Of a stretch of DNA of 64,000 nucleotides, positions 39,001 through 48,000 are shown piece after piece; within the stretch, counting starts at the first letter, position 1; each line of letters opens with the position of its first letter. Location of the stretch: the NCBI RefSeq assembly GCF_045037415.1, contig NZ_CP173438.1; one strand, given 5' to 3'. The position numbers were made by a program. The stretch comes from Escherichia coli (GTDB lineage: Bacteria; Pseudomonadota; Gammaproteobacteria; Enterobacterales; Enterobacteriaceae).

Positions 39001-42000
39001 ATATTCTGCTTATGCTCATTGTCAGGATGGCAGGCGAATATTTCGAGATAACAAATTTTTTACAACTTGTGGCTACCTGGAGTCTGCTGATCATTCTTTC
39101 ATGCAGCGTCGGCTTAATATTCATGGTCGTTGGTAAAACCTTCCCCGAAATGCAAAAGGTTCTGCCGATACTTCTTAAGCCCCTTTATTTCATCTCCTGC
39201 ATCATGTTCCCTCTGCACTCAATTCCAAAGCAATACTGGTCATATCTACTCTGGAACCCACTAGTGCATGTCGTGGAGTTAAGCCGTGAGGCTGTTATGC
39301 CTGGCTATATTAGCGAAGGTGTGAGTCTGAACTACCTGGCAATGTTCACATTGATAACTCTGTTCATTGGTCTGGCGTTATATCGAACTCGTGAGGAGGC
39401 AATGCTGACATCATGATTAAGATTGAGAATTTGACGAAGTCATATCGCACGCCAACGGGTCGACATTATGTGTTTAAGGATTTAAACCTCGAAATCCCTT
39501 CAGGAAAAAGTGTTGCCTTTATTGGTCGTAATGGTGCGGGTAAATCAACGTTACTGAGAATGATTGGTGGCATTGACCGCCCCGACAGTGGAAAGATCAT
39601 CACTAATAAAACAATATCATGGCCAGTCGGCCTTGCAGGTGGATTTCAGGGAAGTTTAACCGGACGCGAAAACGTAAAATTTGTTGCGCGGTTATACGCG
39701 AAGCAAGAAGAACTGAAAGAGAAAATTGAGTTTGTTGAAGAATTTGCCGAACTTGGCAAGTACTTCGATATGCCGATTAAAACTTACTCATCAGGTATGC
39801 GATCGCGTTTAGGCTTTGGTTTAAGCATGGCATTTAAGTTTGATTATTATATCGTCGATGAAGTAACGGCGGTCGGTGATGCCAGGTTTAAAGAAAAATG
39901 CGCTCAATTGTTTAAAGAAAGGCATAAAGAATCTAGCTTTTTAATGGTTTCACATAGTTTGAATTCATTGAAAGAGTTTTGTGATGTGGCGCTATTCATA
40001 CCTAGAGATCATCAGACTTGTCTTTATCAGAATATTAATGACGCAATTAAGTTATATCAAAATGATGAAAATTTGAACATTTAGTGGAGCTAAAAATGCG
40101 TAAAGTTATCACCTTTGGTACATTTGATGTATTACATATAGGTCATATAAATATCTTAAAAAGGGCAAAAAAAATGGGGGACTATCTAATAGTTGGCGTC
40201 TCATCCGATTATTTGAATTTCTCAAAAAAACAGAGGTATCCTGTTTATCCGGAAACTGAGCGTCTTGAAATAATTAGGTCCTTAAAATTTGTAGATGAAG
40301 TTTTTATTGAAGAGTCATTGGAATTAAAGGGCGAGTATATTAAAAAATTTAAGGCAGATATCTTAGTGATGGGAGATGATTGGCTAGGGCGATTTGATGA
40401 ATATAAGGAATTATGTGAAGTATCATATCTGCCAAGAACTGTTGGTATTTCAACGACAGAACTAATTTCTCAAATCAAAAGATATGGTTAATTTTGGAGA
40501 GGGATTTTGAAATTTCATTCAGAGATAAAAAACTCTATAAAAAATGCGAAGAAATTCAAAGGTATTTTATTTGTTAATATAATATCTTATCTGCTGCTAA
40601 CAATTGCGATAAGAAAAGGTCATTCGAAAGAGATTTTAAAATTTAAGTGGTTGATTTTACTTTTTGGCGGGAGTGTCGCTAAATATTTTGTTGCTAGGGC
40701 TTCATTTCTTAATGGTGATTATATATTTGCTAAGAAATTATATCAAGAGATAATTAAGGTAAACCCAATACATACTGATAGCTATTATGGGTTGGCTGAT
40801 GTTTATAGACTAACCGGAAATAAATTAGAAGCGAAGGATGTACTCATTCAAGTTTTTAATTTTTCTGATCGTTTGAAAACTTGGCTATTATTGGCGAACT
40901 TGGTTGATACAAAAAAAGATTATGATGAATTATTGAATCATTGGGAAAGGGAATGTTCTTATAGGAATATACTTAAGTATCATTATGATGTGAACGATTA
41001 CCTTATAATTGCTGCGTTAAGGGCTAAACTATATGAAGAAGCATTAAATCGGGTTAAAGTATTGTTGGGAAGTATAAATTCTGAGGCTTTTATCTTACCA
41101 AAAACTAGCAATAAAAACTTTTCTGTTAATGCTGCTAAAATTGCATTATTAGGTCTAAAAAAAATATTGGATGCTAATAAAATACAGTTTTTTTTAGTTA
41201 GCGGAACATTACTTGGTTGTATTCGTGATAAAAAATTACTAAAACATGACAAAGATATTGATATAGGAGTATGGAGCGAAACAAATCTATCCGTATTATC
41301 AACGAAAATTGCTTGCTCTGGCTTGTTTGATATTGCACCTATGCGCTCACCGTATACGTTGAGAATAAAACATGTTAATGGTGTGGCAATCGACATATTT
41401 TTTCATTATCGAGATCATGACAGCTATTGGCATGCGGGTTCAAAGCTGAGATGGAACAATACTCCATTTAATTTGATTTCTTATGGTTTTCTTGGGAACG
41501 TGTTTTTAATACCAGAAAATTATGATTTATATTTGACTGAGAATTATGGAAACTGGATGCAAGAAAAAATGAAATTTGACTCTGCATTCGATACACCCAA
41601 TCATGAAATAGTTAATATGTATGAATTAAAAATACACGCGTATAAAAAGCTAATAATAAACATGAAAATTGGTAGTGTTGAAGGCGTTAGATATTATGAA
41701 GATAAATTAAATGAACTTGGGTGTATTATATCTAAGCCTTGAGGTCTATATAACTGAATATATTAAATATTAAAAAATAATCATGGGGACATAGTATGTT
41801 GTTAACTAAGTTAGCTAAAAAAATATGCCAATCCAAAGAATATATTAACGGAATTTCTCTATACAAAAAAAAAGAATGGGAGAAGGCATTATTGTTCTTT
41901 GAGAAATCAATCATAAAAAAAACAAAACATGCGGAGAGCTATTTTAAAGCAGGAATATGCAATCTTAAATTGCATAGATATGAAGAGGCATTTAAATATA

Positions 42001-45000: not shown

Positions 45001-48000
45001 ATGATAAGTTTATTTATTGTGATAATGTTCAGAATCCAGATGAGGTGATTAAAAAATCTGATGATATTGATACAAGTGGATTTATTTTTGAAAATGATAA
45101 AATCTACTTTATAACTTTGGGCAGACTTTCAGTCGAAAAAGATCAACAAAAGTTGATTAATGCCTTTTGCAGATTACAAAAATTATATCCTAATATTGAG
45201 TTATTAATTCTTGGAGACGGCCCCCTCAAGATTGATTTACAACGCCAGATTATAACTTTAGGACTTGAAAAATCCGTACATCTTCTGGGACGCATATCAA
45301 ATCCTTTTCCACTGCTAAAGAGAGCTGACTGTTTTGTCCTCTCTTCAAATCATGAAGGGCAACCTATGGTTCTTTTCGAAGCAATGATTCTAGATAAACC
45401 TATAATATCAACTGACATTACTGGTTCTAGAAGTGCTCTTGAAGGGCGTTCTGGTGTATTAGTTGAAAATAGTGTAGACGGTCTCTTCAACGGAATGCGG
45501 GACTTTATCTTGGGAAGGTTGGAGTTTAAACATTTTGACATTGAATCTTATCAAAAAAATGCTTTGTCGATGTTTTATGAAAAATGCCTTCATTAAAGCA
45601 TTAATCTATATCATGATCGTCAAGAACCATTGATTGATTTGTAAGGAGGTATACCTCCTTACAAATTAAAGTAAATTTAGTTAAGTTAATAAATAATTAT
45701 GAATAAGACAGTTTTACATATTAACAGTAATATAACCACAGATGAAATTAGTTTATTGTTGCAGGCATCCAAGTATAAATATATTCATTTTGAAATAATT
45801 GGGAAAGGTGATTCATGTAAAAATTTAATTGAGTTTTCATATCATGATTATAATTTAAAAAAACAATTAATTGCTTTAACTAATGCTGGTTTTATGTCGT
45901 ACGTTCATCGTGGAAATGTAACTTCATTGGTTCACTTTGATGAGATAAAAAACCTCTGGATTCCAGTAAAAGAAAAAAAGTTTTCTATTAATTCTGATGG
46001 GATTGTATATACGTTACAACGGGCTGCATGCAAAATAAATGAAAAGCTACTGATTGTTTTCTCTCAGATGCCAATTGAACCATATTCTGCAAGCTTGTAC
46101 AGATATTTTGCAAAAAACTTTTCTACAATTGATAAATATATTGGAAAAAATGTTTCTATATTAAGAGTGGCTGATATCGGAGGAATTACTGGCTCATTTT
46201 ACTTAAATACAAATGCATTACCAACCAATGCTGATAAAATTAAAAGCCTTATATTAGAAGTTATTGAACAATGTCAAATAAAATCAGATGATGTCGTACT
46301 TTATGGATGCTCAAAAGGAGGTACGGCAGCCGTTTATCATGGATTAACTAATAATTATAAAATAGTAGCGGTGGATCCTATATTAAATGATGAACATTAT
46401 ATAAATAATAAAAATGATCTACATTTAATAGAGGGAGTTTTTCCTCAGCCAAAGGAAGAGTTATTCAAAAAAGTCATTGATGACTATTTAATAAACTATA
46501 AGGGGAATATGTCTTATTTTATTGTTTCACAAAATTCGGAACAGTACAAATATATTATGGATATTATAAATCCAATCATCACTTATTCAACAGTTGCAAA
46601 TAGCATCAATGATAAAATTAAAAGCCATCCTGATGTTGGGCCACAATCAATTCATATGATTGTAGCAATGATTAATATGGCTCTTTCTGGAATAAAACTA
46701 TCTAACGGCATCTATGATTTTGTTTAAATAATATGGCTTTAAGATTAAATTCTGTTTTTATACTTGCGGTGATTTGCAGTATCCAAATTTGTAGCGCTGC
46801 TATTTTAAGTAAAAGCTATTCACATAATGATATTCATATCACTCTGCCATTATTATTTAATGAGTACGATGATGTACTCAGTCAGTATGACGGGGCAAAA
46901 TATTTATACCCTAGTTCATTTGCTCTTGATGATGATAATAATATTTATATTCAGTATATTTTTGAGCCAAAACAAAAGGATAATATATTAGTTTGTTATA
47001 ATAAAAAAGGAAATTACCTTGGGTACTATAAGATACCAAGTGGTGGGCGAGGCGGGGCTGGCGAAGGTTTGGCTATTATACAAGACTATAATGGGTTTAA
47101 TGTTGTATATGTCGTTTCGAATACGGGAACCTTGCAAAGATATAATATGGTGAGTAGCTTGTATGGTGACAGATTATTTAAGGAAAGAGATTTTTCAATT
47201 AATGCTTTTAACCAATTTTCGATGAGTCAAGACTATTGGCTTATTGAAGGTTATGAAAGCGAAAGAAGTATAAAGTATAGTAGAAATAGACTTGAACTAT
47301 ATTCAGTAAGTGGAGATTTATTAAGAGTAATTTATTTACAGAATAATTATTCTGGATATATTGTATCAGATGCGAGTCCTGATGCAAAGAATTATAATAA
47401 AAGACAAGGGATAGCTTTAGGTGATGGTTTTTTTGTTGCTAGTTATGGTGCCTTTTACTATTCCAAAATGGAAAGTACTTATAATACATATCAAGGCATT
47501 AGAGTTTTTGATTTTTCCGGAAAGCTTTTATCTGAAAAAATTTTCCATCCAAATGAAATGATGAATGTTCTCAAAAAAATGGGCTTAACAGTTTCTAGAA
47601 TTGAAAATGAGGGAGTGATAGTCAAGAATAATACTATTTACAGTATGTATATTTATAGTGATAGATACCATCATAAAACCTCCAGAAGTGAAGGGATCAT
47701 TATTCTACTGGATGAATTTACTCAATAAGAAATCAGACGAGTTTTCATTATATAAAAGTGATATGTTTATATGGTAAAATAATTATATGAACTAAATATA
47801 TAGGAATATATTTTTATGAGTCATATAGTTATAAAAATAAGGATTCTTGAAGGTAATGCTTTTATTCTACGTTGATAATTTAGAATAAATTATGATATTG
47901 ACTTTGATCCAAACAAAAAATCTTTATTCATACCCAATGCATTCTCAAATTTTACTCCTCCATAATAACCCCCATTAACCTGCGTCTTCACCAATAAATA

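Follow-up and report, generated by a model that had tools for sequence, protein, structure and literature searches.

Organization and identity of the capsule locus

We analysed 64,000 nucleotides of the Escherichia coli contig NZ_CP173438.1 (assembly GCF_045037415.1), referred to below as the window, which carries a group 2 kps capsule cluster. Its region 2 extends over positions 40096-47728; these coordinates are exact, with the ATG of the first open reading frame (ORF1) at 40096 and the stop codon of ORF5 ending at 47728. The five ORFs are co-oriented on the + strand between kpsMT (region 3) upstream and kpsSCUDEF (region 1), on the opposite strand, downstream. The GC content is 0.28-0.33 over positions 40000-47900, whereas kpsMT has 0.42-0.44, the stretch kpsS-kpsE 0.47-0.56 and the upstream glc genes about 0.55, in agreement with the description of an AT-rich, serotype-specific block in the initial annotation, which had been made from the sequence alone.

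A megablast search with positions 40000-47900 against 5,426 complete E. coli genomes found the whole block in 140 of them, at an identity of at least 99% in 127 genomes and of about 98.3% in 13, and in every case on the chromosome. The carriers include ATCC 25922 and many O25b:H4 strains of sequence type 131 (ST131), and in a record named O2:K2:H1 strain C 237-04 (H62) the DNA of the block is essentially 100% identical. The prototype O6:K2:H1 strain, CFT073, differs from window positions 40085-47889 at 2 of 7,805 bases (44171 and 44321); both differences are synonymous, and all five translations are unchanged in CFT073, with the same WP accessions. By a published definition, a K2 genotype has the region 2 genes of a serotyped K2 strain in unchanged order, and its proteins share at least 90% identity with those of that strain (PMC13171606); here the five proteins are 100% identical to those of CFT073 and are encoded in the same order.

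The region 2 genes of K2 are named kslABCDE, or ksl2A-E, and a plasmid restores the capsule that is lost on their deletion (PMC12488582, PMC11342863); CFT073 without kslABCDE no longer has its K2 capsule (PMC12488582). By nuclear magnetic resonance (NMR), the CFT073 polymer consists of O-acetylated glycerol-phosphate repeat units, with a mass of about 800 kDa, and is "similar to K2 and K62 (K2ab)" (PMC10156666). E. coli K2 has also been listed among the systems with a TagF-like polymerase (PMC5974469). The block is thus very probably region 2 of a group 2 capsule locus, that for the K2 antigen of E. coli, making a teichoic-acid-like, O-acetylated poly(alpha-galactosyl-(1->2)-glycerol-3-phosphate).

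The initial annotation had predicted a teichoic-acid-like polymer with glycerol phosphate and at least one hexose, and this is borne out by the CFT073-identical locus, the NMR data on CFT073 and the ksl deletion phenotype. It had also put forward K2 as a candidate, which the identical CFT073 proteins and the O2:K2:H1 record uphold. Its caution that the serotype could not be fixed from sequence was excessive, because the serotype can be assigned as K2 from reference strains of known type and from published maps that relate genotype to serotype (PMC13171606, PMC13171598). The comparison with typed strains led to K2, and not to a serotype devoid of glycerol phosphate or a polymer devoid of polyol phosphate. 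The locus is already known, as the K2 gene set of uropathogenic E. coli, and its correct recognition as a virulence locus is a routine finding; the assignment of the polymerase family by bioinformatics in 2018 and the pathway logic obtained from a homologous system in 2024 are likewise prior knowledge. The fresh point is limited to ORF5, a predicted propeller protein that would be exported and that has receptor-binding modules of phages as relatives.

Table 1 Features of the K2 capsule locus in the window
Feature	Coordinates	Strand	Source
ops element GGCGGTAG, 33 nt 5' of the annotated kpsM start	38600..38607	+	exact match
kpsM, ABC transporter permease, region 3	38640..39416	+	RefSeq annotation, 100% identical copy
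kpsT, ABC transporter ATPase, region 3	39413..40084	+	ORF listing and RefSeq annotation
ORF1 / kslA-type, predicted glycerol-3-phosphate cytidylyltransferase, CpsB/TagD-like, 131 aa	40096..40491	+	
ORF2, tetratricopeptide repeat (TPR) and LicD-type enzyme of nucleotidyltransferase fold, CpsC/CszB family, 411 aa	40507..41742	+	
ORF3, TagF-like capsule polymerase, 1266 aa	41796..45596	+	
ORF4 (c3693 in CFT073), XcbB/CpsF family, 342 aa	45699..46727	+	
A7 tract in ORF4, codons 92-94	45973..45979	+	sequence
ORF5 / KslE (c3692-type), Sec-signal-bearing predicted beta-propeller, 331 aa	46733..47728	+	
kpsS, beta-Kdo transferase, region 1	47890..49128	-	ORF listing and RefSeq
kpsC, poly-Kdo transferase, region 1	49163..51190	-	ORF listing and RefSeq
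kpsU	51187..51927	-	RefSeq annotation of near-identical copy, mapped to window
kpsD	51937..53613	-	RefSeq annotation of near-identical copy, mapped to window
kpsE	53637..54785	-	RefSeq annotation of near-identical copy, mapped to window
kpsF	54857..55840	-	RefSeq annotation of near-identical copy, mapped to window

Besides kpsS and kpsC, the genes for transferases of Kdo (3-deoxy-D-manno-octulosonic acid), region 1 contains kpsU, kpsD, kpsE and kpsF (51187..55840), with roles in CMP-Kdo supply and export. The ops element upstream of kpsM is, we presume, the RfaH loading site that lets transcription of region 3 read through into region 2.

Enzymes for CDP-glycerol supply, linker and polymer synthesis

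The domain calls of the initial annotation are reproduced for all five ORFs: a cytidylyltransferase (ORF1), a LicD match (ORF2), a TagF-like/glycosyltransferase family 4 (GT4) fusion (ORF3) and two proteins with no Pfam family (ORF4 and ORF5). Two of these calls can be made more precise, since the "LicD-family transferase" is predicted to be of the CpsC type of TPR-LicD poly(glycerol-3-phosphate) linker polymerases, and likely roles can be proposed for the "two unknown proteins", those of a putative O-acetyltransferase and an exported propeller resembling phage receptor-binding proteins (RBPs). A TPR domain of about 470 residues at the N-terminus of ORF3 had been missed.

ORF1 has TIGR01518 as by far its best family match (2.5e-37) and is 48% identical to CpsB of Actinobacillus pleuropneumoniae and 51% to CszA of Neisseria meningitidis serogroup Z (NmZ). 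It contains the HxGH motif (H-I-G-H, residues 14-17) and the RTxGISTT motif (RTVGISTT from residue 114), and the A. pleuropneumoniae proteins Cps3B and Cps7B have been characterised as glycerol-3-phosphate cytidylyltransferases (PMC8262930). RefSeq misnames ORF1 as "pantoate--beta-alanine ligase" or "FAD synthase family protein".

ORF2 combines TPR repeats with a LicD match, and is 43% identical to A. pleuropneumoniae CpsC over 357 residues and 39% to CszB/CapZB of NmZ. The aspartates of the HDKDIDxG and AIDxF motifs align across ORF2 and the A. pleuropneumoniae, Aeromonas and NmZ proteins; these catalytic residues were matched by motif alignment and not by the residue numbering of Cps7C. A hydrophobic segment near the N-terminus of ORF2 (residues 17-35, mean Kyte-Doolittle value 2.0) is absent from A. 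pleuropneumoniae CpsC. As CpsC is the polymerase that makes the poly(glycerol-3-phosphate) linker (PMC11666461), the same role is predicted for ORF2. The RefSeq names of this protein are misleading and change from genome to genome ("tetratricopeptide repeat protein", "LapB", "M48 family metallopeptidase").

ORF3 is composed of a TPR domain (residues ~19-470, with multiple Pfam TPR matches over 19-470), a glycerol-phosphate transferase domain (~502-858; Glyphos_transf, PF04464, 1.6e-77) and a GT4 alpha-galactosyltransferase domain (~880-1262; Glycos_transf_1, 1e-25), and it matches the crystal structure of Cps3D (PDB 8QOY) with E = 3e-250. The PF04464 domain carries the motifs W603-H604-G605 (WHG) and R732-G-H734-H735 (RGHH), and the GT4 domain the R1110/K1115 pair and the Ex7E motif E1187-x7-E1195; the corresponding residues are essential by mutagenesis in Cps3D and Cps7D (PMC5974469, PMC11666461). 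ORF3 thus has the features that define TagF-like capsule polymerases, namely the PF04464 histidines, a C-terminal GT4 domain and, for the CpsD subgroup, an N-terminal TPR domain, and this TPR-TagF-like-GT4 enzyme is predicted to polymerise from UDP-Gal and CDP-glycerol. Cps3D sets galactose onto O2 of glycerol and glycerol-3-phosphate onto O4 of galactose, a linkage chemistry from which the galactopyranose repeat of K2 would follow.

ORF4 and O-acetylation of the polymer

ORF4 matches the XcbB/CpsF family NF033892 with 301.3 bits (cut-off 125) and PDB entry 9HVZ with 3.5e-53; one of the deposited names of 9HVZ ends in "ACoA". The match to the meningococcal serogroup A O-acetyltransferase SacC/CsaC is weak (E = 0.013), with the GxSxG serine (S205) aligned. 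We regard ORF4 as a putative O-acetyltransferase of the alpha/beta-hydrolase fold. It is intact here, with the same length (342 residues) as its orthologs.

According to PMC13171606, a single-base insertion in "a putative acetyltransferase ORF" distinguishes K2a from the acetylated K2ab. This ORF is presumably ORF4, an identification drawn from the 9HVZ and SacC matches and not from the text of that source. In CFT073, mutants resistant to phage MLP3 carry +T and -T frameshifts at a single position of c3693 (PMC8849078, Table 1), and our coordinate mapping places this site (CFT073 position 3521953) in the A7 tract of ORF4 (Table 1). The tract may be a switch between the acetylated K2ab and the non-acetylated K2a capsule. 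It is short, and region 2 as a whole contains only two homopolymer runs of at least 9 bases, with 0.8 expected. In the window the tract is in frame and ORF4 intact, so the genotype appears K2ab-like, consistent with the O-acetylation seen in the polymer of CFT073.

ORF5 (KslE), a predicted exported propeller with phage relatives

ORF5, or KslE, gave no match in Pfam, NCBIfam or the PDB sequences. An exhaustive HMMER search yielded 179 relatives, most of them proteins of 500-1,400 residues in which an internal segment aligns to ORF5 residues 30-330. PHROGs classes these as tail fibres or tailspikes of phages, in which a standard anchor precedes the module on the N-terminal side and a tailspike domain follows it on the C-terminal side. 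The module occurs in 37 phage records, from Escherichia, Salmonella and Erwinia phages and from 19 Staphylococcus/Mammaliicoccus phages, and the layout of the EK8 fibre also places an ORF5-like module in a phage fibre. The hosts of the phages and prophages that bear it include Staphylococcus/Mammaliicoccus, Bibersteinia trehalosi and E. coli, which is circumstantial as to its polymer target. The stand-alone homologs form no more than 13 clusters (38-57% identity), and ORF5 starts with a Sec-type signal peptide, as do all 16 of the 16 stand-alone homologs inspected.

The best solved structural match of ORF5 is the receptor-binding protein of phage phi11 (Gp45, 5EFV), and the fold matches that of staphylococcal phage proteins that recognise teichoic acid. 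The link to phi11 is structural only, because there is no match at the sequence level: a profile of the ORF5 family searched against the PDB sequences did not detect phi11 Gp45, and gave a weak match to Cj1041c only. Among distant structural neighbours in AFDB is a protein named "Teichoic acid biosynthesis protein C" (E = 9e-9), and the 944-residue tail protein of Staphylococcus phage vB_Sau_P68 (our locus L008, 1660-4494) has an ORF5-like module at residues ~448-738. Two functional labels found among the relatives were discarded. The name "endo-N-acetylneuraminidase" on coliphage proteins stems from their C-terminal Peptidase_S74 chaperone domain, and the label "glycerophosphoryl diester phosphodiesterase" (on phrog_22693 and on the Staphylococcus phage tail protein just mentioned) was not used, as Pfam finds no GDPD domain.

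In the five related loci inspected, including those of Pantoea, Rahnella and Atlantibacter, ORF5 is the last gene of the cassette, 3' of the polymerase and XcbB/CpsF genes and toward kpsS. The Rahnella sp. cassette has, in addition, a 330-residue Beta_helix/NosD protein between the ORF5-like gene and kpsS (our locus L005, 5165-6157), which is another fold typical of polysaccharide depolymerases. The dN/dS values between two E. coli alleles of the locus are 0.21 for ORF5, 0.25 for ORF3 and 0.15 for ORF4, and the charged motifs of ORF5 are invariant across its cellular and phage members.

It could be argued that ORF5 is a passenger, a piece of a phage gene that was captured and that plays no part in capsule formation, given that its relatives are mostly phage proteins and that the CFT073 protein is listed as uncharacterised in UniProt. 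This is unlikely: the cassette position has been kept from Escherichia to Pantoea, Rahnella and Atlantibacter at 38-57% identity, a signal peptide has been acquired in place of the phage anchor domains, the GC content equals that of the rest of region 2, the dN/dS ratio is close to those of ORF3 and ORF4, and the charged motifs are kept.

We infer instead that KslE is a functional exported propeller. To judge from its phage-RBP-like fold, it most likely binds, or trims or cleaves, the glycerol-phosphate polymer outside the cytoplasm. The fuller proposal, that KslE is a dedicated extracytoplasmic capsule component, a secreted five-bladed propeller that shares ancestry with the receptor-binding or depolymerase modules by which phages attack polymers with glycerol phosphate and that binds or cleaves the K2 polymer, is offered as a tentative one. 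An exported protein such as KslE is unexpected in a cytoplasmic, ABC-transporter-dependent capsule pathway.

The release of K2 capsule into the medium is well known (the antibiofilm "G2cps"), and if the proposal is true, KslE could set the chain length or cause this release. The homologous modules in the tail fibres of coliphages and Bibersteinia prophages would then be domains for recognition or depolymerisation of K2-type capsules. The link between KslE and tail fibres could help in the search for phage proteins of use in therapy or diagnostics, namely depolymerases or receptor-binding proteins with specificity for K2. Our literature search found no paper on kslE or on receptor-binding proteins of K2-specific coliphages.

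Proposed pathway

The pathway steps are inferred by homology to the reconstituted A. pleuropneumoniae system. Transcription would enter region 2 from the region 3 promoter by way of the ops/RfaH site. ORF1 would make CDP-glycerol from CTP and sn-glycerol-3-phosphate, while KpsS and KpsC would build the phosphatidylglycerol-poly(Kdo) anchor, to which ORF2, as a CpsC-type TPR-LicD enzyme, would add an oligo- or poly(glycerol-3-phosphate) linker. The TPR domain of ORF3 would permit polymerisation to start on this linker and to proceed processively, with the GT4 domain moving galactose from UDP-Gal to O2 of glycerol and, in alternation, the TagF-like domain moving glycerol-3-phosphate from CDP-glycerol to O4 of galactose. 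ORF4 would O-acetylate the galactose with acetyl-CoA, and the polymer would be exported by KpsMT and KpsED.

Strength of the assignment and alternative explanations

Locus identity, domain content and the conservation of catalytic motifs are direct observations. Several points nevertheless weigh against the K2 reading and the pathway attached to it. For ORF1 to ORF4, the roles are carried over from homologs with 36-48% identity; the TIGR01518 score of ORF1 falls short of the curated cut-off (127.8 versus 165.4 bits), and Pfam gives a weak LicD match for ORF2 (4e-4). The K2 phenotype is documented for CFT073 (PMC10156666, PMC12488582) and is predicted for the source strain of the window. A further point concerns galactofuranose, which K2 reportedly contains besides galactopyranose, to go by the title of a 1982 paper by Fischer et al., cited in PMC5974469. 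None of the five region 2 proteins resembles a UDP-galactopyranose mutase, and the source of galactofuranose, if real, must lie elsewhere in the genome. The galactopyranose/galactofuranose structure of K2 is taken here from titles and secondary citations.

The last of these points is the absence of a primer. In A. pleuropneumoniae, the TagB-like CpsA sets the first glycerol-3-phosphate on poly(Kdo), CpsC extends the linker and CpsD starts there (PMC11666461); the A. pleuropneumoniae locus that we retrieved has the order cpsA-B-C-D, followed by an ORF4-like gene. No homolog of CpsA was found in the window (tblastn, E > 8), nor in the related Enterobacterales, Aeromonas and NmZ loci, and the CpsC-type enzyme of K2 thus has no partner CpsA that primes poly(Kdo). 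Since the A. pleuropneumoniae pathway needs CpsA, the linker step may differ in K2.

The locus could also be silent or defective in the source strain, with no K2 capsule made, as frameshifted copies exist in some genomes, to judge from the split annotations of ORF2/ORF3 in records H76 and H82. We consider this very unlikely, because the five ORFs and kpsMTSCUDEF are all intact in the window and the ops element is present.

We also considered ORF5 as the missing primer, a non-orthologous substitute for CpsA from which poly(Kdo) would receive its first glycerol phosphate. CpsA homologs are absent from the window and from every related Enterobacterales cassette, and ORF5 is conserved as the last cassette gene, under purifying selection (dN/dS 0.21), as this explanation would have it. 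Priming, however, is cytoplasmic, whereas ORF5 and its inspected homologs bear Sec-type signal peptides; the fold is that of a beta-propeller and not of a GT-B glycosyltransferase or a nucleotidyltransferase, and the relatives are phage tail fibre modules. Moreover, neither CpsA nor ORF5 occurs in an Aeromonas locus, and there is no upstream CpsA in the NmZ locus either, on a contig that stops before the ORF5 position. The signal peptide, the propeller fold and the Aeromonas locus led us to reject this highly improbable role.

Finally, a ribitol-phosphate capsule of the K100/K18/K22 (Haemophilus influenzae type b-like) type could be thought of, since the flanks are ST131-like, K100 is ancestral in ST131 clade A (PMC13171598) and TagF-like domains occur in ribitol-phosphate polymerases too, but it has next to no probability and is rejected by the published K100 gene content, which comprises a 485-residue IspD/TarI and SDR fusion and a 1,107-residue polymerase with a HAD domain (PMC13171606, supplement), whereas the nucleotide-activating enzyme here is a 131-residue TagD/CpsB-type protein, the polymerase matches Cps3D and the locus is protein-identical to that of the K2 strain CFT073.

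Chromosomal context

Over positions 1-28086 the window shows 100% identity to ST131 strain 4433, and up to 56824 the identity is 99.997%. It lacks the ISEc12 insertion sequence (IS21-like, istA/istB) that strain 4433 has between an IS110 remnant and the AbiEii gene, and at this junction (56814-56824) the two alignment pieces overlap by 11 bases. By its flanks, the chromosome is ST131-like. The overall identity to CFT073, compared over 28932-64000, is about 99%, with mosaic patches: about 10 differences are spread over 31.9-49.9 kb, a stretch that leads from glcA across region 2 as far as the kpsC start, and the divergence rises to 26-59 differences per kb (patches of 3-4%) in three intervals, 29-31 kb, 50-52 kb (kpsC/kpsU) and 58-62 kb. 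This pattern points to an exchange of the K2 block, together with its near flanks, by recombination, and it fits the recombination of the K2 block reported for clonal complex 131 (PMC13171598). In European bloodstream isolates, K2 ranks among the most frequent capsule types, and ST131 has gained it on repeated occasions (PMC13171598). For the ST131-like chromosome studied here, K2 is a high-confidence call of the capsule type, and the putative acetyltransferase is intact.

Three other segments of the window were noted. At ~56.8-61.5 kb, 3' of kpsF, lie the IS110 remnant, a gene for an AbiEii/AbiGii toxin with a frameshift in its annotation, genes for DUF6088, DUF4942, DUF957 and DUF5983 proteins, and a CbtA/YeeU toxin-antitoxin pair; this is the toxin-antitoxin and capsule neighbourhood treated in PMC12488582. 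Between glcA and kps (33812-37466) there is a frameshifted IS4 transposase gene together with type II secretion remnants (a partial gspK, a frameshifted gspL and yghD). Between yghR and yghO (13676-22684) are genes for a lipopolysaccharide biosynthesis protein, a YtfJ family protein, second copies of lptF and lptG, a serine palmitoyltransferase (spt), an acyl carrier protein, an epimerase and a fatty acyl-AMP ligase, a lipid-synthesis set that is unusual for E. coli.

Comparison with known systems

The closest known system is region 2 of CFT073 (c3692-c3696), in which the five genes, their order and their proteins are all identical to those of the window; the difference is one of chromosomal background and lies outside the genes and proteins of region 2.

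The systems of A. pleuropneumoniae serovars 3 and 7 (Litschko 2018, 2021, 2024) share with K2 the CpsB-type, CpsC-type TPR-LicD and CpsD-type TPR-CgoT-CgaT enzymes, with conserved catalytic residues, and the backbone of the Cps3D product, ->4)-alpha-Gal-(1->2)-Gro-(3-P->, is that of the K2 galactopyranose units. In contrast to A. pleuropneumoniae, K2 has no CpsA, its CpsC homolog is about 30 residues longer, with the N-terminal hydrophobic segment, and the predicted exported ORF5 is present in K2 and absent from the A. pleuropneumoniae locus.

For ORF4, the homology to 9HVZ, a structure of the XcbB/CpsF family with acetyl-CoA in a deposited name, is clear, whereas with CsaC/SacC of N. meningitidis serogroup A it has in common the alpha/beta-hydrolase-type GxSxG serine region, in a match that is marginal. 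As for ORF5, the staphylococcal phage receptor-binding proteins of phi11, 80alpha and NF5 are only 13-17% identical to it, and unlike these proteins ORF5 is a stand-alone secreted protein with no stem or tower domains.

The resemblance to the wall teichoic acid pathway of Gram-positive bacteria (TagD, TagB, TagF/TarF, TarM) comprises the CDP-glycerol donor, the GT4 alpha-glycosyltransferase and the PF04464 glycerophosphotransferase fold with its two catalytic histidines. The acceptor is phosphatidylglycerol-poly(Kdo) in K2, whereas it is an undecaprenyl-PP-disaccharide in wall teichoic acid, and K2 further differs in that its enzymes are fused with a TPR domain, that export takes place through KpsMT/ED and that the product is a capsule.

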